Assembly: GCA_965208905.1 (NCBI GenBank)
Contig: OZ242365.1
Coordinates: 1,888,001-1,952,000, forward strand
DNA from: Nitrosopumilaceae archaeon
GTDB taxonomy: Archaea > Thermoproteota > Nitrososphaeria > Nitrososphaerales > Nitrosopumilaceae
Reading direction: 5' to 3'
DNA length: 64,000 nucleotides
Shown here: piece after piece, positions 6,378 through 60,700 of the stretch
Layout: each line of letters begins with the position of its first letter
How positions within the stretch are numbered: the stretch's first letter is position 1
The notes under the pieces: model-generated
What the model saw: only the letters and a program-made list of their open reading frames with translations
The model's database searches: none
What the model was told of the DNA's origin: nothing
Made by a program: the position numbers and the translations under genes

Positions 6378-6750
6378 CGATGACTCGTATTTTGTCTCCA
6401 AAGTTAGCAACACAAATTGTACAATGCAGATGACTTTGTCCCGTAGCTGGACCTTGTATATCGTTTGGTGGTTCTATTGCAGCAATGCGTCTGTGATGTG
6501 CATACTCGCATCTGGACCACACAACATTACTCTTGTACACCGCACCCTATAGGTCATCTATTGGAGTCTTAATTTGATCATACTTCTTGTACATTGTAAC
6601 TCTACTATCCGTTGCTTTTTTGGCTTCCTGTACCCTACATATATCATAATTATTACTAGCATTTAAAATCATTAATTGAATTTTGTTGACTATTCTCCAA
6701 ACTTGTAGGGGCCGAACCTTAATGACACAAGATTTTTTAATAAGACTTTT

Positions 6751-7245
6751 GTGTTAACTACTATGATTCCAAGATTTGTACCAGAGGGTAAAAAATTTTT
6801 ACCAAAGGTAACAATGCAAAAATTACGAAGCTTACATAAGAAAGAAAAATCAGAGAAGCGTAAACGATATTATGTTGCAGCCATAAAGCGAAAAGAAGGG
6901 CTATCAGTTAGGGAGATAGCTGATGATGTCAATATGAGCGTCGCTACCATAAGTACGTGGTTGCGGAATATGTCAACACGCGGCGATGCCGAAGGTTATG
7001 GAACCAGACAAGGGAGACCGCCAAAGTTTACCCCCGAACAACTAAAGGAACTAAGTGTTGATATGAAAAAATCCCCATCAGCATATGGTCTGGATTCTGC
7101 CAGTTGGACATCTCCTGTCGTGGCACAGTATGCCCTTCAAAAGTTTAATGTTGAAATTACACCAGGTTCAATGCGTCGCATTCTGGTACGTAAACACATA
7201 GACTGGCCCGGTTCAGCAGAAGCGATGCGAGCAAGACAAAAGTAA
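6751..7245 (+). CDS. IS630-type winged-HTH protein (OrfA-like, no DDE domain)
   Basis: SVREIA..VNMS.ATISTW, GRPPKFT, WT...V...KF.V.....MRRIL pattern; clean stop followed by AT-rich DNA. Confidence 0.7.
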   Translation: MLTTMIPRFVPEGKKFLPKVTMQKLRSLHKKEKSEKRKRYYVAAIKRKEGLSVREIADDVNMSVATISTWLRNMSTRGDAEGYGTRQGRPPKFTPEQLKELSVDMKKSPSAYGLDSASWTSPVVAQYALQKFNVEITPGSMRRILVRKHIDWPGSAEAMRARQK

Positions 7246-7579
7246 ATAATCTTTAAAATTCTTTTACATTAAATTTATTTTTGTGTGTATAATATTAATT
7301 AATAATTTCTGTATATTAAATGTGAAATTAATATCGAGCCAAATTTCGACTTGGACAATAATTATTTAATTTTATTGATATTTTTTTATAATAATTAATT
7401 ATATCATACTAAAAGTGCAAAGTGTTAGAGTCAGAACGCCAAATCAAAGTTGTGTTGCGCAGTGGGTTATGCTAAAGTATGACGTCAAATCAAAGATATT
7501 ATACAATTGCCGGTTGAAGATGATATCATTATGTATTATAGACAAAATATATAGTTCTGGGCTTTGTGGGTTATGGGAA

Positions 7580-8932
7580 TTATATACAAAAGTACACAGC
7601 TTCGGCTGTACACTCATGCCTTTTCTGACGACTTCGTTGTATGGAGTGGAGCATAGAAGGTGTTGGCTTGTAGTCCTCCTTATGCCCCGGCCGTCTTAGG
7701 ACGACGTTCCCCGCCGCCCTATACAGAATATTCCAGGCGGCATTGACATCCGCGTGGAATACCCTGGTACAATTAGTGCAAATGAATTTGTCGCGTGTGA
7801 CACGCGACTTAGCATCCACCGTACCACACACATGGCACGTCTGGCTCGTATATTTGGCCGATGCCCCCAACAGCGGTATGTTGTGCATCTCACACCACTG
7901 CGCAAGCTTGCGCAGGAACTCCCCAACATGGTTCTCCCGCATTGAACGGTTCATAGCGCGTTTGTAATTCCCGCCATGTGTGGTCATATCCTTTACGGAG
8001 AGCGATTCGACCACGACTGCGTCCATGCCATTAGTTATCTGCGCAATCGTCTGATTTATGGTGTTCGCAGCTATGTTGTTGGCCTTCCTGTATAGCCGCT
8101 TTATTTGATCATTCAATATATGCCACTTCCGGCCATGCCGTGTCTTGCGGTCGCGCAAACTCTTGAGAGCGTCAATCTCCCGCAGGATTGCTCTATGGCG
8201 GGTGTTGTGTATTGTGACGTTGCCGTCCGTATCTACCGTGACGGCGAGATGCTTGCCGCCCACATCAACGCCACGCATTACACCCGTAGTATGGTGCAGC
8301 TCGATCGGTATGCGTAACGCTATGTGCAGCTCAAACATGTGGTCGGACGGTTTGGTATGTTTAGTCACCTTCTTGGTGACATCGACTATCCTAAATGACC
8401 GCATGTCCCATGTTTTATAAATGGGTTTTGCGATCTCCACTGTACCGTAGCCGGAGATATGTACGGTGTGATCACCCTTCCGTACAGGCGGTGTAACGGA
8501 ACTAAGTATGATGCGGTCGTCTTTGCGGCGGTATGGCGCATGGCCGGAGTTGTCATCCATGACTCTCCTACATGCGACGGATGCATCTTGTATGGCGCCC
8601 CTGCCAAACACCATAGGCAAGTCAGATACCCATGCATGTTCAGCGCGCCACTCCGTAAGCTGCTTGAACATGCCGTACTTTAATGCTATCTTTGACGGCC
8701 CAAAATCATATGTATGGTAGTCATCGTCCAGCATACCTGATGTAAAATCCAGCTTGCCCGGTAGTTTGAAGGACTGCAGGATGTCCACTACCACCCTCTC
8801 CATATATTCGCCACCAAACAAATACTCTGATACGGCGCGGTTGTATGCATATCTTGACGCATGATTCGTGCGGTGCACCCACTCTGCAAACAACACATCC
8901 CTCCGTAGCGGTACCTTAACTATCCGTATCAT
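7580..8932 (-). CDS. tnpB: RNA-guided endonuclease TnpB family protein
   Basis: RuvC-I GVDVG, RuvC-II VVESL, zinc finger TSQTCHVCG..FICTNC, RuvC-III HADVNAAWNI. Confidence 0.93.
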   Translation of the reverse strand: MIRIVKVPLRRDVLFAEWVHRTNHASRYAYNRAVSEYLFGGEYMERVVVDILQSFKLPGKLDFTSGMLDDDYHTYDFGPSKIALKYGMFKQLTEWRAEHAWVSDLPMVFGRGAIQDASVACRRVMDDNSGHAPYRRKDDRIILSSVTPPVRKGDHTVHISGYGTVEIAKPIYKTWDMRSFRIVDVTKKVTKHTKPSDHMFELHIALRIPIELHHTTGVMRGVDVGGKHLAVTVDTDGNVTIHNTRHRAILREIDALKSLRDRKTRHGRKWHILNDQIKRLYRKANNIAANTINQTIAQITNGMDAVVVESLSVKDMTTHGGNYKRAMNRSMRENHVGEFLRKLAQWCEMHNIPLLGASAKYTSQTCHVCGTVDAKSRVTRDKFICTNCTRVFHADVNAAWNILYRAAGNVVLRRPGHKEDYKPTPSMLHSIQRSRQKRHECTAEAVYFCI

Positions 8933-8954
8933 AATATATAATACGGTATACTAG

Positions 8955-8962
8955 TATTTAAG
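8955..8962 (-). promoter_or_regulatory. Putative TATA box (CTTAAATA) for a leaderless tnpB transcript
   Basis: About 25 nt upstream of the ATG; the identical octamer lies at the same spacing before the second tnpB (60616-60623). Confidence 0.55.
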
Positions 8963-9209
8963 GGGAGTTGTATGGACGCGATCCGTGGTTCAGGCATTAA
9001 CTCTCAGAATCGGGGTTGTGTACTTTTGTATACGATTCCCAATATTATTGTACAAGGTGTATCGACAAGTCTGCCATGGAAGGTGTCAAGACACGGTGAC
9101 CTATAAGAATCTGTCAAAAAAGTGACCTGCACCAAACTTGACAACCATCTCCACACGAGGTTACCTTTTTGGCAATTCCTCACAGGTTACCATACATGTC
9201 TTATACCGG

Positions 9210-9404
9210 CTAAGTTGAATCCCGTAACCCTTCCAACCGACGTAATTCATCATGAAGTAGTCTAATTACATGTTCATCATTTTTTACAAAATTCTTGCAT
9301 TTGGCGAGATCTTGCCTGTGATCTATTATTTCATCATACTTCTCGGATATTATGGCGGCAACCTCATCACATTTTTTGATATCTTCTTTTATTTTATGGA
9401 GCAT
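9210..9404 (-). CDS. Small coiled-coil hypothetical protein (64 aa from ATG 9404; the ORF extends upstream to 9509)
   Basis: Helical, charged composition. Confidence 0.4.
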   Translation of the reverse strand: MLHKIKEDIKKCDEVAAIISEKYDEIIDHRQDLAKCKNFVKNDEHVIRLLHDELRRLEGLRDST

Positions 9405-9426
9405 GCGGTTCAGATGTTGGCGTATC

Positions 9427-9594
9427 TTAGTAATCTTCTCCGAAAGCTCGTCTGAAATCTTCTCCAACCTCTCGTACGAGCGCTGCACAACCACGTATCT
9501 GCTCAGCAAGACCCTCGGCTTCCGGTATATTGCGTGCCTCTATAGCGTCTGCCCTTCTCTCAAAATCACTCGCATATCTCTCTATCTCACTCAT
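9427..9594 (-). CDS. Small helical hypothetical protein (55 aa, not in the ORF track)
   Basis: Manual translation MSEIERYASDFERRADAIEARNIPEAEGLAEQIRGCAALVREVGEDFRRAFGEDY. Confidence 0.4.
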   Translation of the reverse strand: MSEIERYASDFERRADAIEARNIPEAEGLAEQIRGCAALVREVGEDFRRAFGEDY

Positions 9595-10010
9595 ACATTA
9601 CATATACCCACTATAACATAAAAACCATCACGCCGACACGGGACTGGTAAGAAGTGCTGACCTTCGTATGGTTGGAAAAGATCTAACGTCTGATTAGAAA
9701 GTTTGTAACCTGATGTATGGTACGCTCCGACCCGTTTCTGCCCCCACTAGGCACTACCTGAATTTCCACACCGAGTCACTTTTTTGACAGTTACTCATAG
9801 GTCACCATGTCTTGACACCGCCCTTGACACGGGTATGATTCTCCCTGTGGTTGGAGCAACCCTTTCTGGTACGCGGAAGGCTCATTATATCCCTCTGGAT
9901 GGTAGAAACACCAACAGCGTGTTATGTGTTTCAGATCGCTTGAAAGTGGTTTGATTACGCATAAACTCTACTCCTAAATCCTTAAAGCAAGTATGTAATT
10001 ATAGACAGAC

Positions 10011-17776: not shown

Positions 17777-17953
17777 GATTGCCTTCTCTGCCTTTTTTGT
17801 GGGCTGTGACGTTATCTGCGCGTGTCATAACAGCGCGTATTTGACACAACTGCTATACAGTTGGACTTGTGCCCAATACAGCATGTATAGCTCAGCGACA
17901 TCTAGTACTAAACGTGACGTTTAATTACCAACTCATCAATATATTATCGTGTT

Positions 17954-22159: not shown

Positions 22160-23296
22160 CTACTCGCCCCTAGCCAGCAACTTTTTGATCTGTTCGGCAA
22201 TCACTTGGGCGAAAATTGGAGGCACGGCGTTGCCTATCTGCAAATATTGCTTCGTTCTGGGTCCCTCGAAAACGAAATCATCGTTGAACGACTGCAACCG
22301 TGCCGCTTCCCTAGGGGTAAGGGAACGGTTTTGTGACTTGTCGGGATGGATAAACATCAGGCCATCTTTGGAAAGGTGGGCCAGAACAGTGGAAGACGGC
22401 CTTTGCCAAGGCTGTTTCTTGTACTTATCCAAGAATATATCCCTCCGGTATGGGTTGTACCTGCTGGGTATGTCCTTTATAGTCTTTCCAGGTTTCAACA
22501 TTCTGAAAATTTTAAGATCTCTGTCATTGTGCATCCGTGCTACGTGGTTGTGTATTAGTCCGGATTTCGAGTGGAGCGACGTTGCATAGTCAGAACTCTT
22601 GGCAGTTGGAACGTACCCCATCATGTTTGATCCTTCCCCTGCATGAATTTTGGGCAGATCAGATATTGCCTCGCGCACGGTGACAAAAGGCTTTTTGTCG
22701 TCTGCCCCGCATGAGTGTGTCTCTTCTAGTTCCGGATTCTTTGATCTTATACGGTTTCCAATGGCCAGCGCGCGCCTCCTGTGCTGTGGAACGCCGAATC
22801 CTGCAACATCTTTTTTGTAAAATGACACACAATACTTGCCCCGTAGGATGGACTCCACATCACTTACGACTTGTCCGTCGCCGATGGAGAACATGCGTTC
22901 TACGTTTTCCATAACGAAGAATTTTGGGCGCACTTCCAAGACCAGACGCAGGAATTCCCTGTATAGTTGGTTTACCGGATGGCTCATGGTGCTTGGCCTT
23001 CCCAACGACCGCCACTTGGCAATCGCCACGGTGCTAAATGCTTGGCATGGCGGCCCCCCAGTCATTACGTCTATGACTCTGCGCCCCGAGTGTGCCCGGA
23101 TGTCTTTCCCACTGACTTTGGCGATATCAGCTGCCAATCCGTTTCCATCGTTATGCCGACTGTAAGTCGTAACTGCGTGTTCGTCTATGTCGATGCCAAG
23201 AACAGGCAAGAATCCAGCCCGTTTGAAGCCCTCGGAAAGCCCTCCGCAGCCACAAAATATGTCCACAACAACGGGTTGCTTCGTGCCGTCACTCAT
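22160..23296 (-). CDS. dcm: DNA (cytosine-5)-methyltransferase
   Basis: DIFCGCGG, GGPPCQAFS, MENV, Q.R.R, LTPREAARLQSF, QIGNAVPP; start set at MSDG (TTTAAA 25 nt upstream). Confidence 0.95.
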   Translation of the reverse strand: MSDGTKQPVVVDIFCGCGGLSEGFKRAGFLPVLGIDIDEHAVTTYSRHNDGNGLAADIAKVSGKDIRAHSGRRVIDVMTGGPPCQAFSTVAIAKWRSLGRPSTMSHPVNQLYREFLRLVLEVRPKFFVMENVERMFSIGDGQVVSDVESILRGKYCVSFYKKDVAGFGVPQHRRRALAIGNRIRSKNPELEETHSCGADDKKPFVTVREAISDLPKIHAGEGSNMMGYVPTAKSSDYATSLHSKSGLIHNHVARMHNDRDLKIFRMLKPGKTIKDIPSRYNPYRRDIFLDKYKKQPWQRPSSTVLAHLSKDGLMFIHPDKSQNRSLTPREAARLQSFNDDFVFEGPRTKQYLQIGNAVPPIFAQVIAEQIKKLLARGE

Positions 23297-23900
23297 ATCC
23301 AAAAACGTACGTGCCATGTATTTAAATTCGTATAATTGGGCAATGCCAATCTCAGTCAATACAAATGTAATTCCAGCCCTCCGGCAGGCCCGGCGGAGAC
23401 TTTGACTAATGGCCAAGTCAGTGAGAAGGTGAAGCGTCTCTGCAAATTCCACTCCCCACTTGAGGTCTGAGGCGTTTGTACTGCCCATCAGAAGATGCGC
23501 CTTGGACATTCGGGCTTGTCGATTATCTACGCGTCATAAAAGAGGCGCGGGTAAAGCCTAACATGCGACCGCTGAGGTTCTGCATCGCGTTTTTGCGCTG
23601 TCCTGTAGTCTGTATCCGGCCTCTATAGCGGAATGCAAAAGTTCCTGCACAATTGAAAATCGCCTAGGCACGCACACAGGTTAGGTTGGCAGGACTGTGT
23701 GCGCCTGATTTTGATAAAACATCATACGATTGTGGCCAGTCATATTATCCCTGAGGTGATTAAATGCCTCCTCCGCATACTTTATACTGATTGTTTGACC
23801 CACAGAATCTTTTGCTAGTATTGCCAGCTTTAACAACATCTCCAACCTCTGCTCTCTATCTTGGGGGAACACCTAAAACAACTACTTGAACGTTAACATT

Positions 23901-24293
23901 ATGGCGGATGTCTTTTCGGTACGGAAGAGGAGCTGGGTAATGTCAAGGATACGCGGAAGGGATACGCAGATCGAAATAATCGTCCGCGACCTGCTGCGTT
24001 CCCGCGGACTGGCATTCGAGGATCATCCGAAAATATATGGCCGGCCCGACTTTCTGGTGGGTACGAGAACCGCGGTGTTCTGTGACGGGGACTTCTGGCA
24101 TGGTTTCCGGTATGATGAGAGGAAGTCCAGTAGTGTGTTCTGGAGGGACAAGATCGAGGGGAACATGCGGAGGGACAGAAAGGTGTCTAGGAAACTGCGG
24201 CGCGATGGTTATTCCGTCATAAGACTGTGGGAACACGACATAAAAAAACGACCCGAGGTATGCCTGAACCGGATAATCCGGTTTATGAGATGA
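23901..24293 (+). CDS. vsr: Very-short-patch repair endonuclease
   Basis: MADVF...RS..MSRI...DT.IE, GRPDF, FCDGDFWHG, RLWEHD. Confidence 0.93.
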   Translation: MADVFSVRKRSWVMSRIRGRDTQIEIIVRDLLRSRGLAFEDHPKIYGRPDFLVGTRTAVFCDGDFWHGFRYDERKSSSVFWRDKIEGNMRRDRKVSRKLRRDGYSVIRLWEHDIKKRPEVCLNRIIRFMR

Positions 24294-24380
24294 GACCTAT
24301 GTGGACTACGGGATTGTCGGGAATCACAACAAGCGGCACGTACATCAAATTTTTATGGATCCAAACCCGCATGTCATTCG

Positions 24381-25469
24381 TTGACCGTCTCCAAAATCTA
24401 CTTCAAGGATCTCCTTGAACAACAGGAACAGTGGGATGACTACTCACAATATTGCAGCGAAGTATCTGGAATCATTTCGCGGGAGGTAAAAGAGAATGCA
24501 AGGAACGAGGAGCATCTGATCAATGATTTGAAAAACAGTCCTGAGTTTGAACGCCTTTCCGTCAGAAGCGTCGGACCAAAACTTGAGGAGGCCGAAAAAC
24601 TTCTTACTGACGGACAGGTTGTGGGTGTCGATGGAACAATGGCAAAATATAACTTCCTGTCTGGCGTTCGCTGTCAGATCGGAGTTGTTGCGGTAAACTA
24701 TCAGGGGGAGCAGATCAAACACAGCTTCTTTATCTCACAGGCTGGTCTCAGGGAGGAGGCCGATGCCGTACTTGAGAGGATACTACAGCGTACGGAGGAT
24801 GATGGGGGCCTATCCGACATGCACCTACGCGGACTGATGATGTACAGGGAGAGGGAGGCGGGAATGAATTCAAAGTTTGAGGGAAAATACATAATGTATC
24901 ACGGCCCGCTGATGCCATTCGAGCTCATGTCAGGTCTTGGCCGTTTGCGAGCCTTGGATACCACCTTGGATATGCTGAAGAGAATGGTTCGTTCAAAAAG
25001 GGTGATGAGCGTTATCTCCGCACCGTTGCACAGGGACTATACGTATTTTGGGCTGGCAATGGAGAACGGACAATACTTTACGTATCCGAAAAACGATCTC
25101 GCGACCCACCTCCTACACGCAACAGAGTTTGTAAAGCAGAGGGAGAAATGGAGAGACGAGGAGTTGAGAAAGGTTGAAGAGTTTATCGGTGATTATGCTG
25201 CCCAGATATCAATCGGGGTAATTCGAATAGGACAGCGGCCTTATGTCTTTCATGCGCATAAGGATATTTTTGATACGGCTGCAGGAATAATTGCGCGTGA
25301 CTCAATGTTCCAGAGGGAGAAGGGGTTTCCATTACTGATTGACTACGCGGACAATCTCTGCACCGAGTACTTTCCAAATTCCCAGTTTGCCAGGATGATG
25401 GGCTGGGAGCTGGCAAAGACAAATCTCTATCTGCGGGAATCGGGGGAAAGGAGAATGAGGGTGAAATAA
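24381..25469 (+). CDS. nurA: NurA-like nuclease
   Basis: GVDGT, E.E, HGPL, GFPLLIDYAD motifs; directly upstream of herA. Confidence 0.7.
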   Translation: MTVSKIYFKDLLEQQEQWDDYSQYCSEVSGIISREVKENARNEEHLINDLKNSPEFERLSVRSVGPKLEEAEKLLTDGQVVGVDGTMAKYNFLSGVRCQIGVVAVNYQGEQIKHSFFISQAGLREEADAVLERILQRTEDDGGLSDMHLRGLMMYREREAGMNSKFEGKYIMYHGPLMPFELMSGLGRLRALDTTLDMLKRMVRSKRVMSVISAPLHRDYTYFGLAMENGQYFTYPKNDLATHLLHATEFVKQREKWRDEELRKVEEFIGDYAAQISIGVIRIGQRPYVFHAHKDIFDTAAGIIARDSMFQREKGFPLLIDYADNLCTEYFPNSQFARMMGWELAKTNLYLRESGERRMRVK

Positions 25470-25470
25470 C

Positions 25471-27090
25471 ATGGTGCAGGACGATCCGATTGGTTTTGTT
25501 AACTTTGATTCCGGTTCTACCGACAGCAACGAGGTTGAGATAATGATTCCACATTCCGGCATGCATGGTATCAGACGCGGTCAATACGTCAGAATCGAAT
25601 CCTCGTTTGAGAATGAAACAAGAAACTTTCTAGCACGTGTTTCAAGGGGTCCGTTCTTTCATCCTGATGCGGTAAGCAGGGATTCCGCATTTGCACGCGC
25701 CTCCGTACTGCATGCAGGAAGCGTCAAATTCAAACCCGACTACCATGGCATATGTTCAGCCCAAATCATGGGGGAGTTAAACCGTGTCGAGATGAAAAAC
25801 CGTGGAACCTTTATCAGGCCCAGACCCCAGGCATCTGTTCATGCCCTGTCGGCACAGGATGTTGAGCGGCTCCTAGGGCTGTCGGGAGACATGTACTTGG
25901 GACTGCTTAATGTCGACCACAAAGTCCGAATACGCCTACCCAGTGACAAAAATGCCGCACTGCCTAGGAATGTCGGAATTTTTGGAACCGTCGGCTCCGG
26001 TAAGACCAACACAAGTCAGGTTCTGATTGAGGAGGCATCGTCAAGCAGTTGGGCAGTCATTGTTCTTGACGTGGAGGGCGAATATGTTGACATGGATCAG
26101 CCATCAAAACAACTACGACTCCCATTTGAAAAATTCGGGGTCGGGCCAAGAGGTGTACAGGCGCTGGATGTCTACCATCCGATAAATACCGAACCTGCAA
26201 GGCCGGACAAATCTCATGAGTTCGGTATCCGGTTTTCATCACTCGAACCACACCTTCTGGCAGAAATCATGGGTCTTAATGAAACACAGAACGAGGCATT
26301 TTATGACATATGGCATGGCATCAAACGGAGGGAAATGCATACGCCCGCAACAAATGCCGGTCTTGTGAGGGCCATTCAGGATGACGAACAGGCAGGGGCA
26401 GGTATAACCCTCTGCGACATGATTGACGAAATCAAGACTATGATTGAAGCGCATCAACCGGGCATGCCTGCAAAATCGACCCTCAGGGTTTTGAGTCGGA
26501 AGTTCAGAAAGATTCAGAGGTACGGAGTTTTCGACCAAGGTGAGGATATGGGAGATTATGGAAACCTGCTCATGCCAAACCAAGTAAGCGTTATTGATCT
26601 CAGCGGCTCGTACAACGACACGATCAACAATGTTGTCGTCATGGATGTACTGAGAAGTGTTTTCGATCTAAAACTGTATGATAAAAACCACAGCCTGCCA
26701 AACGTCCTAATAGTGATAGAGGAGGCGCATACACTGGTCAGCAAGGACAAGGCATCCGAGATGGCGGAAACCTTGGACATACTACGTGAAATTTCCAGGC
26801 GGGGCCGTAAAAGATGGCTGAGTCTGTGCTTTATCAGCCAGCAGCCGTCACACCTGCCCCCGGAAATATACGATCTCTGCAATACGAAAATCGTACACCA
26901 GACATCGGGAGGAAACAACCTTGATGCCATCAGAAATTCTGCAGGCGGGGCGGATTCAGGTGTCTGGAACGACGTACCTGTGCTGGCACAGGGAACCTGC
27001 GTGTTCATCAGCTCATACTTTAAGAACAGGCCGATGTTTGTCGATGTCAGGCCCTGTTCCAGTGCCAGAAGACACGTGGAGGAGGAATAG
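25471..27090 (+). CDS. herA: HerA/FtsK-family ATPase
   Basis: N-terminal HAS-like barrel, GTVGSGKT, DVEGEY, IEEAH, RRGRK, SQQP. Confidence 0.9.
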   Translation: MVQDDPIGFVNFDSGSTDSNEVEIMIPHSGMHGIRRGQYVRIESSFENETRNFLARVSRGPFFHPDAVSRDSAFARASVLHAGSVKFKPDYHGICSAQIMGELNRVEMKNRGTFIRPRPQASVHALSAQDVERLLGLSGDMYLGLLNVDHKVRIRLPSDKNAALPRNVGIFGTVGSGKTNTSQVLIEEASSSSWAVIVLDVEGEYVDMDQPSKQLRLPFEKFGVGPRGVQALDVYHPINTEPARPDKSHEFGIRFSSLEPHLLAEIMGLNETQNEAFYDIWHGIKRREMHTPATNAGLVRAIQDDEQAGAGITLCDMIDEIKTMIEAHQPGMPAKSTLRVLSRKFRKIQRYGVFDQGEDMGDYGNLLMPNQVSVIDLSGSYNDTINNVVVMDVLRSVFDLKLYDKNHSLPNVLIVIEEAHTLVSKDKASEMAETLDILREISRRGRKRWLSLCFISQQPSHLPPEIYDLCNTKIVHQTSGGNNLDAIRNSAGGADSGVWNDVPVLAQGTCVFISSYFKNRPMFVDVRPCSSARRHVEEE

Positions 27091-27093
27091 TTC

Positions 27094-29265
27094 GTGGAGG
27101 GCGATGAGGATCTTCTGGTATTGAGACCGGTAGCCAGAATGGCCCAGATTCTGGGCCAGCACCTGATTAGAGACAACATAGTCGGAGTTCTGGAGCTTGT
27201 AAAAAACGGGTACGATGCAGATGCCGAAAACGTGGTTGTAGATCTGAGACATCTGAAGGATCCGGCAAGGACGGAGATCATGGTATTGGATAACGGGACC
27301 GGGATGGACGAGGACACAATAAGAGGCCCGTGGTCGGAGCCGGCGCATGGTGGGAAACAAAACGACAAGAACATACAGAAGAGATCAGGGAAGGGGAGAC
27401 TTCCGCTTGGTGAAAAGGGTGTGGGGAGGTTTGCAACACAGAAGCTTGGAAGAATACTAGAAATGGTGACTAGGCCCAAGGGGAGCAGGTTTGAGTTTCT
27501 GGTAACAATCGACTGGGACGACTTTGACAATAGTGATGCGTACCTTGATCAGATCAGGTTTCCGCTTGAAAGAAGAATTCCGGAAGTCTTTGCCGGAGAC
27601 GCACACGGCACGCGGCTCCTTATGAGGAACTCGCCAACACCGTGGAAACCATCAAACGTAAAGGCTTTACAGGCAGGCATGATGCGGCTGCTTTCACCGT
27701 CAAGAGAGAACAGGGACTTTGCGGTGACGCTGCGCTGTGCCGAATATCCGGAGATGGAGGATCTTGAGAGAGGAATTGTATTGGAAAAGTTTCAGTTCAA
27801 GATTGAATGCCAGATCCGCGAGAACGGAGTTACGTCTTACACCTATGTCCACAGGAATCCTGACGGAACGACCGAAACAATCAAGGAACCGAAGATGAAT
27901 GTCTGGGCCAGTGTCAACAAAAACTGGCAGACGCGGGATCCGGTATGCGGACCGTTAAGGATTATACTGTATGCATGGCTGAGACCCATCGCCAACCTGA
28001 ATGAGTACGGACTCACAAGAGAGCAGCTTGACGAATTATCCGGAGTTAGCATCTACAGGGATGGTTTTAGAATAATTCCGTATGGGGACAAGGGGGATGA
28101 CTGGCTGCGGCTTGACATAAGAAGGACGAACCAGCCCGGTACAAAGTATGGAAACAATCAGATTATTGGTCAGATAGAGATAACGCAGGACAGAAACAAG
28201 GATCTTATTGACAAGACAAGCAGGGAGGGCCTCTGGGAAAACGATGCATATTCCGACATGAGGGATATCGTACTTGGCGTCCTCGGATGCCTTGAAACGG
28301 CAAGTATGGAGGAGCGCGGCAGGGCCAAAAAACAGACCAAGTTGGTAAAGACACTAAAGGCGAAAATAACCGAGCTGGAGAGGCAGGTCAGTGAAATCAA
28401 AAACAGACCCAAAACCCCTGACGTGGAAACCAAGGTAGCAGAAGATGAAGCGGCGACTTCAGAACCTCCGACAGTCAGTGTACCCATTGACAGGCTTGCA
28501 GGCATTGAACAAAGCGCAAGGGAAATAAATCTGTCATCCGACGAAGTTATTAGGGAATCTTCCGAGGTAGCAGAAGAAAAAAGGGAGGAGTTCCTGCATC
28601 TGATGGGGATGGGATTGTCTGCAGAAAGGTTTACCCATGAGTTTGACAGACTGGTCGCTGGAATGTCCCACAACTTTGCCAGAATAGAGGAGAAACACCC
28701 ACATTATGGATGGACCAAGGCTTTAAGGCGTAGTCTGGATCAGCTAATAAACGAGGTCAGTCTCATTTCAACTGCAAGATATGTTCGAAGGCCTCCGAAG
28801 GAACAGGTAGTAGATATCAGGAATGTTTTAAAAATGGCCCTGAACGCCCATCAGTCAATCATAGAGGAATACAAAATACGGGTTGAAATGCCCCAGGGAG
28901 GGGACTTTGAGATTAACATCTCGCTTGCATCCATCTCACAGGTCCTAGACAACGTGATATCCAATGCATTCTACTGGCTTAATCTGAAGAGTGAGATAAA
29001 TGATAGAAGAATTCACATAGCAATAAACGGGCAGGACAGGAGCATCATCATATCGGACAACGCCAGACCCATACCACGTCATATCAAAAACACCCTTTTT
29101 AACAACCCGTTTGTTACAACAAAACCAGACGGAAGGGGTCTGGGTCTTTACATCAGCAATGAGATTCTTAAGAAAAATAACGGAGAGATTGATTTTCTGC
29201 CCGACTCCGATCCGCGTAACATGTATGGACTGGCATCATTTATTATCAGTTTCCATCAGAAATAG
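27094..29265 (+). CDS. MORC-like GHKL ATPase fused to a C-terminal histidine kinase module
   Basis: ELVKNGYDADA, DNGTGM, GEKGVGRF, YRDGFRI.PYG...DWL.LD; coiled coil; FTHEF (H-box), DNVISNA (N-box), TTKPDGRGLGL. Confidence 0.88.
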   Translation: MEGDEDLLVLRPVARMAQILGQHLIRDNIVGVLELVKNGYDADAENVVVDLRHLKDPARTEIMVLDNGTGMDEDTIRGPWSEPAHGGKQNDKNIQKRSGKGRLPLGEKGVGRFATQKLGRILEMVTRPKGSRFEFLVTIDWDDFDNSDAYLDQIRFPLERRIPEVFAGDAHGTRLLMRNSPTPWKPSNVKALQAGMMRLLSPSRENRDFAVTLRCAEYPEMEDLERGIVLEKFQFKIECQIRENGVTSYTYVHRNPDGTTETIKEPKMNVWASVNKNWQTRDPVCGPLRIILYAWLRPIANLNEYGLTREQLDELSGVSIYRDGFRIIPYGDKGDDWLRLDIRRTNQPGTKYGNNQIIGQIEITQDRNKDLIDKTSREGLWENDAYSDMRDIVLGVLGCLETASMEERGRAKKQTKLVKTLKAKITELERQVSEIKNRPKTPDVETKVAEDEAATSEPPTVSVPIDRLAGIEQSAREINLSSDEVIRESSEVAEEKREEFLHLMGMGLSAERFTHEFDRLVAGMSHNFARIEEKHPHYGWTKALRRSLDQLINEVSLISTARYVRRPPKEQVVDIRNVLKMALNAHQSIIEEYKIRVEMPQGGDFEINISLASISQVLDNVISNAFYWLNLKSEINDRRIHIAINGQDRSIIISDNARPIPRHIKNTLFNNPFVTTKPDGRGLGLYISNEILKKNNGEIDFLPDSDPRNMYGLASFIISFHQK

Positions 29266-29356
29266 AATCCAACGTATTCGGCAGTCATGTCTGATTAATA
29301 TCCGCATTATAAAAAACCGGGTCGGGCGACGGGGGCAGTAGTCTTATGCCACGGGC

Positions 29357-32300
29357 CTATGATCCATCGCGTAATATTCTGACTGCTTCGACGTGCGAGC
29401 ATGTTGGTATAGTTCCTGGGTTACGTCTGGATGAACTTCGGAACCCCCTGCATGTACAGCGCATATTGGATACCGTGTAAGACTGGCCCGGCCTGCTGTT
29501 GGATTTCACCTCATAGGTACCGTTGGGATTGCGTATGATGCCATCTGCTGCCAGTGACCGTGCCTTCCTGTACATATCGTCACTTACTACAGGTGGTGCC
29601 AGACCGCAGTCTTGGCTCCCATCGTCACGATCCGCCGAACTAGGCGCCTCTTCAAGGTCTGGACCCACCTTGAAATCCTTATGGGGACATATTGTCTTAA
29701 AGTCGCATCCGCGACACTTGGACTCGTCTGGAGTAGGTTTGAAACTACGTTCCTTGATCATATTGACTTTTTCTATTATTCCCCTACGTGTCCCCTCCAG
29801 ATCCGCGGATCCTATGTCCACATCTTCGGTCCTTTCGGTGTCCAGGTAGTGAATGGTGGCCTTCTTGGGCAGGTATCCTAAGGCAGCCCGTACTGCATAC
29901 GCGTAGAATCTGACCTGCTCTCGGTGGTCCAGCTGGTAGTCGGCCCCCTTGTCGGTCTTGAAATCTATTATCTCCAGACTGCCCACCCTGCCGTTCCCGT
30001 CCAGCCTCTTGAGCAGATCTATACTGCCGGATATCAGCGCATCACCCAATGTAAACTCAAACCTCTTTTCGGTCTCAAGTATCCTTTCAAAGTCAGTACC
30101 GTGGACCTTCACATAGTTTTCAACCACCCGTATACCTGCCTTCCTCATGTTCTCGCTTTGTGTCCCCGGCGCAAAACGCATGTAGAACATCTTATCAAAC
30201 ATGCCTGCTATCTCGCCTCCAGTAGGAATGTGCCCGTTGCGTATGTAGTCCGAGTGTATCTTGTTAAGTATGTTGTGGATGTTGGTACCGTAGCCGAAGG
30301 CTGGGGGTACGCCGGCGTTGAACCCAATGTCATGTCTGAGCCGGTAATCATACGGACACCTTTCGTATAGTGAAAGTTCGCTGAACGATGACGGTATGGT
30401 TCCGACATGTACGGGCGGAATGGAGGCTGATGCCGATGGCAGTCTGATTTTCACGGTATCGGAAAACTCGTCCCCATCCATCTCGGCGGCAAAGCGTCGT
30501 GGGGCATACGGCTTTGTCCTAGTTTGGCCTACCTCGTGGCGGGCGGAACCTGTTATGAACAGGTACTTCTGTGAGCGCGTGACAGCCACGTAGCACGCCC
30601 GCCGATCATCCTCCTCGTCCCCACCATACCTTGCACTGTCATAGAGGTGATTGTCGACAAATATCCCTTGTGGGTATGGCCTGCGTCTTTCCTCAAACGA
30701 CGGCATGAATACTGCGGGAAACTCCAGACCCTTGGCCTTCCATATGGTCATTATCCTTACCGCGTCTGCCAGCCCGGGATCAGCATGTAACGTGTCGCCG
30801 TAGTTGGAATCGGCAAACATCCTGACGAACCATTTCAGACCTGCCACCTCCCTCGCCCTCAGGGACCTGTACACGTATTCATAGTCACCTATGACCCTAC
30901 TCAGGACGGCCAGACCATACAGGTCCATTTCGGAAAGCCTACCTGCCTCCGCCCCCATGATATTCAGTATGTGGTGGTAGAACTCCTGCAGTCCCAGTCC
31001 ACCTAGATAGTCCCGGCTCCCACCGGCCGATATGGCTGCCGCCCTTTGCCTAACATGCTCCAGATTGATGGCAAAGGCTTCTACGTCCCCTTTTGCTACC
31101 GCCATCCCGTATCGCCTCACAAGATCCTCAGGATCCGGAACATCATCAATGTTATATCCGTTGTGGCCGAATGCATAGAATATGCAGTCCAGCGCCAGCA
31201 CCACTATGTCGCTCCCGAATACGCTGGTACCACTGTCCGCAACGTAGGGTATGTCGTGTTCGGCGAGATACCCGGCCACACTGGCGGCATCGCCGTTGGT
31301 ACGTACTATTATGGCCATGTCTGCATAGGACAGGCGGCGCTCCCGACCATCCCTGTCCGAAAATGTAGCATGATGAAGTCCGTTAATCGTACTGACGATG
31401 AAGTCGAACTCTTCTGTATCCGTGTCGAAGTGACGGTGTACAATATCGCCCGACTCGAAGTGGTTTCTCCTCCCTGTATTGGCATCCATCATCTTTGGGA
31501 TGCGTATCGTATTGTTTCTAATCAGGCGGGATGCTACGTTTATCAATCCACCCGTGGCCCTGTAATTTACCTCCAGCTTCTTGGTTGTAACACCGTATCC
31601 GGAGTACTTCTTGTCAAAAGCCCGTATGTGGTGTATACTACTGCCCCTCCACTGGAATATGTTCTGGTCGTCATCACCTACCACGCAGACAGACACTGCT
31701 CCCTCCGAGAGAGCCTCCAGAAGGTCCTCCTGCAGTCCGTTTACGTCCTGATATTCGTCAAACACTACATGCCGTACATGCTCCCTGACGTACCTACGGA
31801 CTTCGTCCTGTTTCATGACCTCCAGCAGTGTAGATATTGTTGAGGCAAAATCAAAGAACCTTTCATCCCTGATCTTTTCTAGATATCTTTCATAACAGCC
31901 GGCAAATACCTTGTTTGATACCTTTGATACGTCCACCTTTTCTGTGATCATAATATCTACACTGGAACAGAATTTTCTGATGGTCCTCCACTTTCCACTG
32001 CCACCCTGCAAATCACGAAGGCCGATTTCATGATACCACCTGTCTACAAACGCGGTGCGTCTGTTGGCATCAAGCACCTCAAACGACTTGTATTCGGGAC
32101 ATACCTGCTTGAGCATCTGGAGGCAGAACGAGTCGATCGTCCCCACATACATGTCGCCAAAGTCTGATTTTTTTGGATACTCCGCCTTCAGTATCCTGCG
32201 GATTCTCAGCTTGAGCTCGCTGGCGGCCTTCTCGGTAAACGTAACGGCCACGATTTCAGATGGCTTTTCACCCTTCCCTACAAGCTCGGCCACCCTCCGG

Positions 32301-32404
32301 CTTACGGTCTCGGTTTTGCCGGCACCGGGACAGGCAATTATCCTTAGGTGTCCGCAGTGATGCCCTATGATATCCTTCTGTGCCTTGGAAAGTTCCAGTT
32401 TCAC
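29357..32404 (-). CDS. UvrD/Rep-like SF1 helicase fused to a PD-(D/E)XK nuclease and a C-terminal SWIM finger
   Basis: ACPGAGKT, DEYQD, VGDDDQ.IF.WRG, KAKGLEF, YVAVTR; CPY..GSID..IIDFKT..C..CDF..IC; CTC..CSH. Start reassigned to GTG 32404 because the longer ORF begins inside the IS630 end. Confidence 0.92.
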   Translation of the reverse strand: MKLELSKAQKDIIGHHCGHLRIIACPGAGKTETVSRRVAELVGKGEKPSEIVAVTFTEKAASELKLRIRRILKAEYPKKSDFGDMYVGTIDSFCLQMLKQVCPEYKSFEVLDANRRTAFVDRWYHEIGLRDLQGGSGKWRTIRKFCSSVDIMITEKVDVSKVSNKVFAGCYERYLEKIRDERFFDFASTISTLLEVMKQDEVRRYVREHVRHVVFDEYQDVNGLQEDLLEALSEGAVSVCVVGDDDQNIFQWRGSSIHHIRAFDKKYSGYGVTTKKLEVNYRATGGLINVASRLIRNNTIRIPKMMDANTGRRNHFESGDIVHRHFDTDTEEFDFIVSTINGLHHATFSDRDGRERRLSYADMAIIVRTNGDAASVAGYLAEHDIPYVADSGTSVFGSDIVVLALDCIFYAFGHNGYNIDDVPDPEDLVRRYGMAVAKGDVEAFAINLEHVRQRAAAISAGGSRDYLGGLGLQEFYHHILNIMGAEAGRLSEMDLYGLAVLSRVIGDYEYVYRSLRAREVAGLKWFVRMFADSNYGDTLHADPGLADAVRIMTIWKAKGLEFPAVFMPSFEERRRPYPQGIFVDNHLYDSARYGGDEEDDRRACYVAVTRSQKYLFITGSARHEVGQTRTKPYAPRRFAAEMDGDEFSDTVKIRLPSASASIPPVHVGTIPSSFSELSLYERCPYDYRLRHDIGFNAGVPPAFGYGTNIHNILNKIHSDYIRNGHIPTGGEIAGMFDKMFYMRFAPGTQSENMRKAGIRVVENYVKVHGTDFERILETEKRFEFTLGDALISGSIDLLKRLDGNGRVGSLEIIDFKTDKGADYQLDHREQVRFYAYAVRAALGYLPKKATIHYLDTERTEDVDIGSADLEGTRRGIIEKVNMIKERSFKPTPDESKCRGCDFKTICPHKDFKVGPDLEEAPSSADRDDGSQDCGLAPPVVSDDMYRKARSLAADGIIRNPNGTYEVKSNSRPGQSYTVSNMRCTCRGFRSSSRRNPGTIPTCSHVEAVRILRDGS

Positions 32405-32456
32405 AGTGTTAGTTTTTTGTATGTGGTAAAAAACAAAGCGATAACAGATAGACCTA

Positions 32457-33559: not shown

Positions 33560-33734
33560 AATTCTAATAAATATACCAAACGAATTAGATCGTTACCCCC
33601 AAAATGCCGATATTTGGGTTGACCTAGCGTCTATTTTATACTTAATACCCTAAAACTATGGACGAACATTGTAGATGCGAATTTCGTCTGTCAGTTATGA
33701 CAAACGCGCTATTTGGTGTGGTGGTGTGTAAACC

Positions 33735-33923
33735 CTAGGCGGGTGGCTCTTTTGTCGAGAGTGGTTTTTCTATGATACATATTACATTTCTTTTCAAAAC
33801 CACTCTGGTGCCACGATGACTTATGGTTTTACGAATAATCCGCGGCTTGCCAAGCTCCCGACATGTACAGACAATTCTTTCACCTCTCAGCGTATCGCCA
33901 AGTTCGGTATATACGTTCGGCAT
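33735..33923 (-). CDS. Small hypothetical protein
   Basis: Start overlaps the stop of the upstream gene. Confidence 0.4.
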   Translation of the reverse strand: MPNVYTELGDTLRGERIVCTCRELGKPRIIRKTISHRGTRVVLKRNVICIIEKPLSTKEPPA

Positions 33924-36735: not shown

Positions 36736-36745
36736 GTGTCGTTAC

Positions 36746-59275: not shown

Positions 59276-60700
59276 TGAGCTAGTAACTAAACGTCGCGTT
59301 TAGAACCAGATGCCGCTGAGCGACAGATGTTGGTCATATGACCATCCAGAGGAGTTTCCAAGAGACGTTCATTGTCGGCCGGGTTTTGACGCCTAGCCTG
59401 GTGACAGCCTGTACCGGCCATCACGTCACCAACTACACTGGGAGGCGTAAGTGTCGCGAGATGTATCTTTCCTCTCAAGACCATTCCAGCCTTGTTTTGC
59501 AGTTCGTAAACGCCTTGAACGCGCTTACTCCACTGCACTATATAAAAAGCGAAAAGTATGTTGAATGCTGCATTTACGTCCGCATGACACGATACACCGC
59601 AGTTATGGCACCTAAACTTACTACCCTTGCGCCACGTGTTTGTACTACCACACATACAGCACTGTTTTGAGGTGTTCTTTGGGTTTACCTCGATATATTC
59701 TACATTATGTTGTAGGGATTGTTGCGCAATATGGTTACGCGCCTTGCCGCACTGACTTTGTCGCATCAATCTATTCTTGTTTTTCTGACCTTCACCTTTA
59801 CTTGTCATGGTTTTGAGATTCATACCCTCCATGATGATTTTATCACACTGTCTCATTAGTTTCTTGGAGAACTTGCGCATCTTGTCCATCTGTCGATTTC
59901 CCAACTTACGGTATATGCTGTTTAGTGTATCATGCAGTCCGCGCCACTTGTGGGAGTGAAGTTTGCAACGCGACATCTTTTTCTGTATACGCGCTATGTT
60001 GCGCAGTGTGTCTTTCTCGCGTAGTGTAAGCATAGCAATTGTACCATCGGACTTTCCCACAATAAGCGTGTGCTTGCCGCCCATGTCTATACCAGCATGT
60101 ACACCGGTACAGACGCGGTCCGGGACATGCTCGCGTATCGTTACATGTAGTTCAAACTGCCGTTCCTTATCAGCATGGTTCGTAACGTCTACAATCTTGT
60201 ATGATTGTGAGTCTGATGGTAGCCTACCTTTCTGTAATTTGAATGGAATACTACACTTTGGGAAGTATACTACATCACCTTTGGACTTTTTACCCAACGG
60301 CACACTACTATACAGGGGATAAACCTCCCTGCCATACCTCACATAACTACAGTCTTCCATCTTGTGACCTTCCCGTATGGCGCCGCGAGCCCAGGCCTGG
60401 GGGATTGTTCGGCATTTGGTGGCCATCTTATTGGTGTCAAATTCCGACATACCAGCACGACGAGCCTCAATTCCCGCATTGAGCCACATATGGGATTCAG
60501 AATACATTGAGTCAAAATATCGAGTGAGTTTGGTTGATGTCTTGAGACGGTACAGTAGAGTCCTAACAACGTACTTTTCGCCTTTATACTTCATGTGGTA
60601 TAATGAGTTCGGTGGTATTTAAGCGGTGTATTTGGTAGGTTTGTTTGCTCAACTAACTACAGTAGGCTATGATTGAACGCGACGTTTAGTTACCAACTCA
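59276..60700 (-). mobile_element. Solo-TnpB element bounded by 25-bp inverted repeats and a GCAATTT direct repeat
   Basis: 59276-59300 TGAGCTAGTAACTAAACGTCGCGTT vs reverse complement of 60676-60700 TGAGTTGGTAACTAAACGTCGCGTT (23/25); flanks GCAATTTG / GCAATTTA. Confidence 0.8.
59287..60594 (-). CDS. tnpB: RNA-guided endonuclease TnpB family protein
   Basis: GIDMG, IMEGM, TSKQCCMCG..FRCHNCG, HADVNAAFNI. Confidence 0.93.
   Translation of the reverse strand: MKYKGEKYVVRTLLYRLKTSTKLTRYFDSMYSESHMWLNAGIEARRAGMSEFDTNKMATKCRTIPQAWARGAIREGHKMEDCSYVRYGREVYPLYSSVPLGKKSKGDVVYFPKCSIPFKLQKGRLPSDSQSYKIVDVTNHADKERQFELHVTIREHVPDRVCTGVHAGIDMGGKHTLIVGKSDGTIAMLTLREKDTLRNIARIQKKMSRCKLHSHKWRGLHDTLNSIYRKLGNRQMDKMRKFSKKLMRQCDKIIMEGMNLKTMTSKGEGQKNKNRLMRQSQCGKARNHIAQQSLQHNVEYIEVNPKNTSKQCCMCGSTNTWRKGSKFRCHNCGVSCHADVNAAFNILFAFYIVQWSKRVQGVYELQNKAGMVLRGKIHLATLTPPSVVGDVMAGTGCHQARRQNPADNERLLETPLDGHMTNICRSAASGSKRDV

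Follow-up and report, generated by a model that had tools for sequence, protein, structure and literature searches.

TnpB is currently modelled as a homing nuclease that offsets scarless excision by Y1 or serine transposases, and it needs a short motif (TAM) beside its target. An 8-bp target-site duplication is typical of the IS1595 family at large. The ISNwi1-like group of this family has terminal inverted repeats (TIRs) starting with GGGAATTAT, 8-bp duplications and passenger genes (ISfinder; Siguier et al. 2009). Altae-Tran et al. (2023; PMC10691335) described TnpB within inverted-terminal-repeat elements in which the tnpB 3′ end lies near the transposon end, named six DDE-associated TnpB branches (DDE-1 to DDE-6), and proposed movement in trans for solo TnpBs that have the ends of transposase-bearing elements. 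IS630 is named there as a DDE partner, the main text of that article has 0 mentions of IS1595 (PMC10691335), and a review names ISL2, IS630 and IS1031 and argues that the TnpB-DDE association in prokaryotes is rare and of unclear benefit (PMC13565253). In eukaryotes, Fanzor1 and Fanzor2 are described in TIR/TSD cut-and-paste transposons, often non-autonomous, and their guide-RNA scaffold takes in the TIR and the duplication (bioRxiv 10.1101/2023.08.09.552727); the Fanzor catalytic glutamate is placed 6 residues before the zinc finger (PMC13565253). The IS1341 group of IS200/IS605 is described as having no TIRs and no duplications and as dependent on the Y1 TnpA (PMC4810608; PMC3119063; PMC13565253). 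Other IS families already have published cases of TnpB within DDE transposons, and the probable IS1595-type case presented here adds to these.

The locus lies in a 64,000-nucleotide stretch of a Nitrosopumilaceae genome (the window). It resembles the DDE-associated TnpB branches in its inverted terminal repeats, in the position of the tnpB 3′ end by the transposon end and in the in-trans reading given below, but differs in the probable IS1595 partner, in having no copy with its own transposase, in its Nitrosopumilaceae-type host and in its abundance (six families with at least 45 full-length copies between them). The features in window coordinates are as follows.

7575..9040, minus strand: whole TIR element with tnpB (family 0), probably non-autonomous, 1466 bp
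7580..8932, minus strand: intact tnpB ORF, 450 aa, with a CxxC...CxxC zinc finger and the canonical D-E-D triad of RuvC
7575..7598: right-end (RE) TIR, 24 bp, GGGAATTATATACAAAAGTACACA read inward, with the tnpB stop codon inside
9017..9040: left-end (LE) TIR, 24 bp, 22/24 against the RE TIR, with CG for TA at positions 7-8
8955..8962, minus strand: TATA-box-like CTTAAATA, 22 nt before the tnpB ATG
7575..7800, minus strand: predicted guide-RNA (omega-RNA) scaffold, overlapping the tnpB 3′ end and terminating in the RE TIR
7555..7574, minus strand: predicted guide template, the flank directly downstream of RE, placed by the TnpB paradigm
7567-7574: RE-side 8 bp, ATAACCCA in gene orientation
9041-9048, minus strand: LE-side 8 bp, ATAATATT in gene orientation
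9049-9052, minus strand: candidate TAM position, TACA in the window copy, at odds with the family consensus A-T-N-G
59276..60700, minus strand: second window tnpB element, family 1, TIR type 1b TGAGCTGGTAACTAAACGTCGCG

The segment 7575-9040 is a genuine TIR-bounded mobile element. In a 15-copy alignment, the window element and the 14 other full-length copies in the genome (77-93% nucleotide identity) are alike between these borders and not beyond them, and the loose contig ends of other copies in other sequencing runs fall exactly at 7575 and 9040. The 25-bp inverted repeat of the initial annotation is real (arms 7574-7598 and 9017-9041, 25 nt, 92% complementary), but the alignment and the contig ends define true TIRs of 24 bp, and T7574/A9041, the 25th pair, belongs to the flanks and is complementary by accident. 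The view that the repeats exceed chance was borne out, as similarity stops at the repeat ends and perfect 8-bp direct repeats flank 11/15 copies. The TIRs lie at the exact ends and are not subterminal hairpins, unlike the TIR-less IS1341 group of IS200/IS605. The minus-strand ORF had been read as TnpB with its stop in the downstream repeat and a box upstream, and each of these readings held: the TAA at 7580-7582 falls within the arm 7574-7598, and CTTAAATA is the reverse complement of 8955-8962. This TATA-like box, kept as (C/T)TTAAATA in 15/15 copies, is a putative tnpB promoter.

The TnpB protein matched Pfam OrfB_IS605 (PF01385; 1.4e-08, 35.4 bits, cut-off 30.5) and Cas12f1-like_TNB (PF07282; 3.2e-16, 59.7 bits, cut-off 26.3). 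The catalytic residues D223, E309 and D395 and the zinc-finger residues C366, C369, C385 and C388 were invariant (alignment A2), and ORFs and catalytic residues were intact in most copies. Close relatives were found in archaeal genomes, titled Nitrosopumilaceae or Cenarchaeum MAGs. A Fanzor identity was rejected because E309 lies 57 residues before C366 and the close relatives are archaeal. As in Fanzor1 and Fanzor2, a TnpB-type nuclease appears to have been captured by a cut-and-paste transposon, but the host here is prokaryotic and E309 is in the canonical TnpB position. The 8-bp duplication is variable here and would consequently belong to the guide and not, as in Fanzor, to the scaffold.

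The region 7575..7800 had a folding z-score of -4.73, with 0/200 shuffles folding as well. In a 12-sequence consensus structure, 9/47 pairs stayed paired through two-sided changes, although these reflect few independent events because the set comprises essentially two clades. Third-codon-position diversity drops across the last 75 tnpB codons. The structural signal and the lower synonymous diversity both support a predicted guide-RNA scaffold at the tnpB 3′ end. A metatranscriptome in contig form (word share 0.07), the sole run from an RNA library, contributed low-depth pieces on 7688-8025 and 8689-8843 that are uninformative on transcription, ends and strand. An HDV-like ribozyme match at 7680-7741 (minus strand) scored 21.2 bits, below the gathering score of 44 (E 0.46), and was taken as chance; an Rfam scan of 7300-9300 gave no match other than this sub-threshold one.

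Among the 15 full-length family-0 copies in the genome, 12 carried 8-bp target-site duplications (11 perfect, one 7/8), which IS200/IS605 elements lack, and an interrupted 16th copy had a perfect one. The chance of a perfect 8-bp match is arithmetically ~1.5e-5 per copy. No duplication was found at the window copy, where ATAATATT and ATAACCCA match at 4/8 positions; the earlier remark that no TSD is visible is thus correct for this copy but does not extend to its sister copies. Sequencing runs showed the insertion at 7575-9040 to be common to strains with ~4% flank divergence, indicating that it is old, and the missing duplication is attributed to this age. On the best explanation, the window copy was inserted long ago and has stayed intact while its duplication decayed. 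Flank exchange was rejected as the cause, since no other copy or solo end has a matching 8-mer and the insertion is old. No contig skipping the element was found among the sequencing runs examined. The left side of the window element adjoins other mobile debris. An HTH ORF at 6751-7245 was dismissed as part of the element or as an IS630-type partner, because it is outside the TIRs and its two paralogs are unlinked to tnpB. One pair of family-0 copies is 98.4% identical, and a family-3a pair is 99.85% identical with different duplications; these near-identical pairs suggest recent activity in both families.

The outer 13 nt of the RE TIR, GGGAATTATATAC, are the same as the termini of two elements that carry an IS1595 transposase (genome coordinates 1043578-1046414 and 1770047-1772736). 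Both start and finish with GGGAATTATATAC, have perfect 8-bp duplications (AAAATTAT and CAATTTTA), and encode intact 319-320-aa proteins with the Pfam domains DDE_Tnp_IS1595 (2.9e-40) and Zn_ribbon_IS1595. The transposase gene of the second lies at 1770084-1771040. Two further IS1595 elements, 99.86% identical to one another, have GGGAATTATAGTG termini, which have the outer 10 nt in common with the window TIR, and perfect 8-bp duplications. Hence the termini match DDE_Tnp_IS1595 elements over 13 nt in two cases and 10 nt in two, with duplications at 4/4 of these elements, and tnpB elements have duplications of the same length as the transposase elements of this genome and of related species. 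IS1595 elements of other species in the genus have GGGAATTAT... termini and 8/8 duplications; PF12762 was present in 10/10 genomes of the genus. The exact 13-mer terminus is common to three TnpB families, the transposase elements and ORF-less mini-elements of 115 bp and 45 bp, all with 8-bp duplications, and wherever these termini occur the duplicated sequence is AT-rich. Identity with the transposase-bearing elements is confined to the outer 13/24 nt, the inner halves of the TIRs being different.

The element is like IS1595 insertion sequences in its GGGAATTAT-starting TIRs, 8-bp duplications and passenger gene, and the transposase-bearing IS1595 copies in this genome carry a methylase/HNH-like ORF. 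It departs from them in lacking a transposase, in having a predicted RNA-guided nuclease as cargo, and in a right TIR that also serves to end both the tnpB ORF and the predicted guide-RNA scaffold. Like MITEs, it is apparently non-autonomous, with TIRs and duplications that match an autonomous IS of the same genome, but unlike them it is of full size, with a functional-looking protein and a predicted RNA of its own.

Because tnpB is its only gene, yet it has cut-and-paste ends and 8-bp duplications, the element most likely borrows a transposase from another place in the genome. We put the probability at about 0.75 that 7575-9040 is a non-autonomous IS1595-type DDE transposon that is moved in trans and has tnpB and a predicted guide RNA as cargo. 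An IS1595 transposase made elsewhere would bind the GGGAATTATATAC termini and cut AT-rich sites with an 8-bp stagger to insert the element there. Transcription of tnpB may start from the TATA-like box in the left end, and the last ~220 nt of tnpB together with the right TIR would yield the guide-RNA scaffold, with the guide read from the flank, that is, from the 8-bp duplication and the bases that follow it. So guided, TnpB would recognise an unoccupied or precisely excised site, in which a left flank with A-T-N-G at its end is followed by the 8 bp and the right flank. Cutting of the empty site could then lead to recombination with an occupied copy that restores or spreads the element.

The proposed recognition step draws on a one-sided motif in the family-0 flanks. 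G was directly outside the LE duplication at 15/17 family-0 ends versus 5/20 right ends (Fisher p = 1.9e-4); position -4 was A in 11/17 and position -3 was T in 12/17. A 55%-identical clade of another species had G just outside the LE duplication in 4/5 clean cases. Family 3a, which has the same TIR core, showed A, T, T and A at -1 when inspected by eye, and the flank motifs of family 2 and of the 523-aa family are TTG and ATA, respectively (same TIR core). A-T-N-G outside the LE duplication is a candidate for a family-specific, one-sided TAM, with the 8-bp duplication between it and the element. An unlikely reading, though one with some weight, is that the motif reflects target preference of the transposase, or chance, and that TnpB is a passive or decaying passenger. 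The AT-rich duplications noted above fit such a preference, and G at -1 also occurs at some mini-element and transposase-element ends. Counts are small. G at -1 was seen by eye in ~15/50 ends with the same TIR core other than family-0 LE ends, so a weak general G preference may exist. However, both sides have the same 24-bp TIR (22/24 in the window copy) and G is enriched only upstream of tnpB; the same TIR core goes with different motifs in different families; and the intact ORFs and catalytic residues of most copies argue against a passive TnpB.

The remaining alternatives concern what moves the element. TnpB is usual in IS200/IS605 and IS607, which are described as families without TIRs and duplications (PMC4810608; PMC13565253), and the window element is like the IS1341 group in its size (~1.4-1.5 kb), single tnpB, predicted 3′ guide RNA and short upstream-side motif, the last of which resembles the target/TAM logic of IS605. 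It is nevertheless very improbable that it is a canonical IS200/IS605 (IS1341-group) or IS607 element, moved in trans by a Y1 or serine TnpA, with a repeat that is incidental or forms subterminal hairpins. The repeats are terminal, neither IS200/IS605 nor IS607 makes the 8-bp duplications seen at 12/15 copies, and the 8-bp duplication stands between the left-end motif and the end of the element. Moreover, in a genome that is a single contig, 99.57% complete, and has 75 matches to PF07282 (TnpB TNB domain), there were 0 matches to PF01797 (Y1 TnpA; 6/14 control genomes positive) and 0 to PF00239 (serine recombinase; control genomes positive). The family thus differs from the IS1341 group in having TIRs and duplications and in a genome in which no Y1 TnpA was found, and from IS607 in the same TIRs and duplications. 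Just as hard to credit is that TnpB itself, through its RuvC/RNase-H fold, acts as a transposase on its own TIRs with an 8-bp stagger, making the element autonomous. It is true that TIR types tend to go with their own TnpB subfamily, that TnpB is the sole encoded protein for most TIR types, with no partner found, and that older annotation labels it an ‘IS1341-type transposase’ (PMC3119063). Yet one terminus serves TnpB families that are 27-29% identical as well as IS1595 transposase elements, and ORF-less mini-elements have the same ends and duplications. An 8-bp-duplicating DDE family other than IS1595, with a terminal likeness that is convergent or irrelevant, is a rather improbable mobiliser, but more plausible than these two. 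In its favour, only 13/24 TIR positions are common with IS1595 elements, several 8-bp-duplication TIR types in the genome have no identified partner, and there are other DDE-like ORFs, such as 465- and 501-aa frames with weak PF12762 matches. It has to contend with an exact 13-mer terminus on four unrelated cargo types, all with 8-bp duplications, and with the same terminus adjoining IS1595 transposase genes in other species.

Support for mobilisation by an IS1595 transposase concerns one TIR type. At least 45 full-length tnpB copies in six protein families coexist in the genome, none with its own transposase, and these six families have at least seven TIR types. Most other TnpB lineages examined, including the second window element (flanking 8-mers GCAATTTG and GCAATTTA, 7/8), have TIRs and 8-bp duplications; for types 1e, family 4 and family 5, duplications were found at 0/6. 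Inverted repeats also accompany relatives in further genomes of the genus. The initial annotation had called the two window elements independent, with unrelated repeats and common protein motifs. Indeed, the TIRs at 59276-60700 differ from those at 7575-9040, the proteins belong to different families, and S..IVDVT...FELH and D.GG are invariant alignment columns. Its suggestion that the repeats are a property of the TnpB clade fared less well. Repeats are general in these lineages, but family 1 TnpBs (at least 60% identity) have five different TIR types and families that are 27-29% identical have a common one, indicating that TIR type does not simply track protein clade, even though each type tends to accompany its own subfamily. 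Since the family-0 termini are those of IS1595 DDE transposons of the same genome, these repeats belong to a borrowed transposon chassis and not to TnpB as such.

For types 1a-1e, the GGTTCC type and family 5, the searches in this genome and in the genus turned up no transposase with such termini, and genome-wide motif scans and a TIR search around degraded IS1595 copies likewise found no partner. We therefore do not extend IS1595 borrowing to the other TIR types. IS1595 loci in related genomes had only GGGAAT- and CGCTCATATTCC-type ends, and in a genus-wide search the type-1b TIR was present in 3/10 genomes, with no new partner. A Caldilineaceae bacterial MAG has a nearly identical TIR with a TnpB that is 25-26% identical.

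We tentatively propose, at somewhat less than even odds, that in this archaeal lineage most TnpBs have left Y1/serine TnpA for interchangeable IS1595-like chassis with 8-bp duplications while keeping RNA-guided homing. If homing was kept, the TAM would directly border the 8-bp duplication on its outer side, the first bases of the guide would be those of the duplication, and the right TIR would have a triple role as transposase site, ORF end and guide-RNA scaffold end. The chassis may have been swapped between TnpB lineages, possibly across domains, as the Caldilineaceae case may illustrate. With 75 TnpB-domain matches, no canonical TnpA found and TIRs plus 8-bp duplications at most located elements, the genome offers a concrete testable system, in which a matching IS1595 transposase is present for one TIR type and the one-sided flank motif is lineage-specific. 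It raises the questions of how guide/TAM logic works when the target duplication separates the TAM from the element, whether one sequence can serve as both TIR and guide RNA, and how a nuclease cargo moves between transposon chassis. In annotation, such elements would be misfiled as IS200/IS605. If the lineage-wide proposal is true, it would give prokaryotes a parallel to the capture of Fanzors by cut-and-paste transposons, and a natural setting in which to test the benefit of homing to DDE transposons.

The minus-strand tnpB described in the initial annotation is present as an ORF of 450 aa at 7580-8932 (-), and its product matched the Pfam domains OrfB_IS605 (1.4e-08) and Cas12f1-like_TNB (3.2e-16). 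We also recovered the claimed 25-nt inverted repeat with two mismatches (arms 7574-7598 and 9017-9041), the stop codon of tnpB inside its downstream arm, and the upstream box, CTTAAATA, 22 nt before the tnpB ATG. When the element and its flanks were compared by BLAST with the host genome (a single contig of 2,214,775 bp, 99.57% complete), 14 further full-length copies were found at 77-93% identity, together with fragments, and similarity among copies ended at the repeat in every case. A multiple alignment of the genomic copies gave the exact ends GGGAATTATATACAAAAGTACACA ... TGTGTACTTTTGTATATAATTCCC. The element therefore spans 7575-9040, and the 25th pair of the inverted repeat belongs to the flank. 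Contigs of other sequencing runs break exactly at 7575 and 9040, leaving loose ends.

Perfect 8-bp direct repeats, whose sequence varies by copy (e.g. TTAAGAAC, ATTTTAAA, TACAGAAG), flank 11 of the 15 copies of this TnpB protein family (family 0). One of the remaining copies has a 7/8 duplication and three have no match (5/8, 4/8 and 2/8), the window copy being the 4/8 case. Terminal inverted repeats (TIRs) with a target duplication of fixed length are the signature of DDE-type transposition, in contrast to IS200/IS605 and IS607 elements, whose defining features, in the sections of PMC4810608 and PMC13565253 that treat them, are the opposite.

The terminal 12-mer had 92 matches in the genome when one mismatch was allowed. 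Such termini also end other tnpB families, and they bound 115-bp and 45-bp mini-elements as well as two 2.7-2.8 kb elements (genome 1043578-1046414 and 1770047-1772736), both with perfect 8-bp duplications. The proteins of 319-320 aa encoded in the latter two are IS1595 transposases (Pfam DDE_Tnp_IS1595, 2.9e-40; Zn_ribbon_IS1595), and a methylase/HNH-like passenger adjoins the transposase gene. Two more IS1595 elements, 2.1 kb long and 99.86% identical, have termini GGGAATTATAGTG and perfect 8-bp duplications. The IS1595 family makes an 8-bp duplication, and its ISNwi1 group has ends 'ggnnatTAT' (ISfinder); both duplication length and termini of the IS1595-type elements were measured directly here. 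HMM searches of the whole genome returned seven matches to the IS1595 transposase domain over the cut-off at E<=1e-10, four of them in intact frames, and 75 to the TnpB TNB domain, with none to Y1 TnpA or to serine recombinase, while positive controls worked. IS1595 transposase genes occurred in 10/10 genomes of the genus versus 4/39 sampled genomes of the family's other genera, a descriptive comparison only because kin are not independent. Where IS1595 ends could be located in other species, they read GGGAATTAT... with 8/8 duplications. From the TIRs and duplications, the IS1595 elements with like ends, and the failure to find a Y1 or serine-type TnpA in the genome, we interpret the element as a non-autonomous transposon of IS1595 type that is mobilised in trans. 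This interpretation is weakest at the TIR itself, where only the outer 13 of 24 nt are identical to those of the transposase-bearing elements.

A tblastn survey of the genome's TnpB repertoire gave 45 full-length tnpB ORFs, which group into six families (families 0-5) at 60% protein identity. Separate from these is a divergent TnpB-like family of 523 aa, also bounded by TIRs of its own. Family-specific end patterns located the ends of 41/45 ORFs, 28 of them with 7/8 or 8/8 duplications (29/42 once t1310842 was added).

Elements with 7/8 or 8/8 duplications, by TnpB family or TIR type
Family 0: 12/15
Type 1a: 2/2
Type 1b: 2/2
Type 1c: 1/3
Type 1d: 2/3
Type 1e: 0/2
Family 2: 5/6
Type 3a: 2/2
Type 3b: 3/3
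Family 4: 0/2
Family 5: 0/2

The second element of the window:
59276-60700 (-), type 1b, flanking 8-mers GCAATTTG and GCAATTTA (7/8)

The two identical family-4 copies appear to have exchanged flanks. Protein phylogeny and TIR type are decoupled, since families 0, 3a and 4, mutually 27-29% identical, have the GGGAATTATATAC terminus in common and family 1 contains five TIR types. Outside the GGGAAT type, no TIR type could be paired with a transposase sharing its ends in the host genome or genus. Type-1e and family-5 elements (e.g. genome 187534-189010 and 1561190-1562640) have TIRs (T)AGAGTYTATGCGTAATCG and a visible 8-bp duplication in 0/4 cases, and may use a different transposition chemistry; a 320-bp deletion derivative of this kind lies at genome ~2020370-2020710. 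At genome G000:C1:924780-927835, two GGTTCC-type elements, one with a family-2 tnpB and one of the 523-aa type, stand tail to tail with 8 bp between them. The outer flanks of the pair carry the same 8-mer, TTAAACTC, as though the two elements had transposed together.

Judged from sequence, the TnpB cargo seems functional: the protein alignment has no variation at the four zinc-finger cysteines or the RuvC D-E-D residues. Some copies are recent, with a pair 98.4% identical in family 0 and a pair in family 3a that is 99.85% identical and has different duplications. Folding of the element's last 226 nt gave z = -4.73, with 0/200 shuffles as good, and in a consensus fold of 12 sequences, essentially from two clades, 9/47 base pairs are maintained where both partners have changed. 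Third-codon-position diversity was 0.12-0.19 over the last 75 tnpB codons, down from 0.2-0.38 before them, as would be expected for an RNA overlapping coding sequence. The right TIR is predicted to supply the 3′ half of a terminal hairpin, as well as the final 17 nt of the putative guide-RNA scaffold. An Rfam HDV-like ribozyme model matched within the predicted scaffold at 7680-7741 (-), probably by chance given its sub-threshold score (21.2 bits at E 0.46, the gathering score being 44).

Flanks were then read in gene orientation, with position -1 the first base beyond the left-end duplication. G occupied -1 in 15/17 family-0 left ends versus 5/20 right ends (Fisher p = 1.9e-4; binomial p = 2e-8 for left ends against a G frequency of 0.229), and again in 4/5 clean cases of the diverged clade of another species. 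Family-0 left ends also had A at -4 (11/17) and T at -3 (12/17), the commonest adjoining 4-mer being ATAG (5 times). A symmetric preference of the transposase fails to explain this one-sided signal since both ends carry identical TIRs. Family 3a, which has the same TIR core, showed A, T, T and A at -1 (flanks read by eye); family 2, with a GGTTCC core, had TTG in 5/7 usable ends, and the 523-aa family, with that same core, had (C/T)ATA-like ends. The motif, although counts are small, fits a candidate TnpB-specific TAM, the short motif that TnpB needs beside its target. In the empty site, the TAM would stand directly before the 8 bp and right flank, the stretch that the guide would copy. The one-sided pattern may come from retention and homing, or from targeting.

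The window copy is intact but old. Contigs of two related organisms, with flanks ~4% different, bridge both junctions (6709-7604 and 9004-9879). Its left TIR carries two changes, its duplication has decayed, its candidate-TAM position reads TACA, and other mobile debris adjoins its left side.

Features near the window copy
6751-7245 (+), multi-HTH protein of 164 aa (HTH_32, HTH_29, HTH_23, most below Pfam cut-offs)
9072-9829, unit of 758 bp bounded by an IR whose 55-nt arms are 85% complementary, beside the element's left end
9823-9972, 150 bp derived from a type-1e tnpB element (94% identity with the right end of the copies at genome 1561188 and 1571472)

The HTH gene is not linked to tnpB elements; its two paralogs, at other places in the genome, are 73-78% identical to it in nt sequence. 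A ~127-bp mini-element at 17800-17926, whose left end is the type-1a tnpB TIR (TGGGCTGTGACGTTATCTGCGCG) and whose right end is type-1b-like, looks like a chimeric MITE-like remnant; no clear duplication was found around it. The window also contains a run of defence-like genes at 22160-39132.

Genes of the defence-like run
22160-23509, C5 DNA methylase
25471-27090, HerA-like ATPase
27094-29265, GHKL/HATPase protein
29357-32497, UvrD helicase fused to PD-(D/E)XK nuclease
37681-39132, SAVED-domain protein

Among the genus's other genomes, 5/9 had family-0 relatives at E<=1e-60, versus 0/31 of the genomes searched outside the genus. Copies in another species, with proteins 55-58% identical, have TIRs GGGAATTATATACATAGATTCAC and perfect duplications. 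A scan of genomes of 185,579 species yielded 79 related loci. Every locus above ~35% identity belonged to a record titled Nitrosopumilaceae archaeon or Cenarchaeum sp., and several of these loci showed the TIR/duplication pattern, new TIR types included. About 45 distant loci (Nitrospirota, Pseudomonadales, haloarchaea and others) gave only chance-level repeats without duplications in the TIR/duplication scan, a crude negative control, since ends that are short or imperfect would escape it. The exception was two loci (L130 and L135) in a Caldilineaceae bacterium MAG, where TnpB is 25-26% identical and the ends, GGGACTTATAT(G/A)CCTAAGTACACAGA, are almost identical to the archaeal TIR; this likeness could reflect a transposon chassis shared across domains.

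The principle of TnpB in DDE transposons is already known. In PMC10691335, six TnpB branches associated with DDE transposases and having inverted terminal repeats are described, IS630 being named, and solo TnpBs with the same ends as transposase-bearing elements are proposed to move in trans. According to a 2026 review (PMC13565253), DDE associations are rare in prokaryotes, the partners listed being ISL2, IS630 and IS1031. 'IS1595' is absent from the main text of PMC10691335, whose supplements may name further families, and full-text literature searches found no title or abstract linking TnpB with IS1595. Because the partners named in these texts are other families and no such link was found, we rate as new IS1595 as the partner family, together with the host group. 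Unusual is how completely one genome's TnpB population has been taken over, and the geometry of candidate TAM, duplication and predicted guide is readable.
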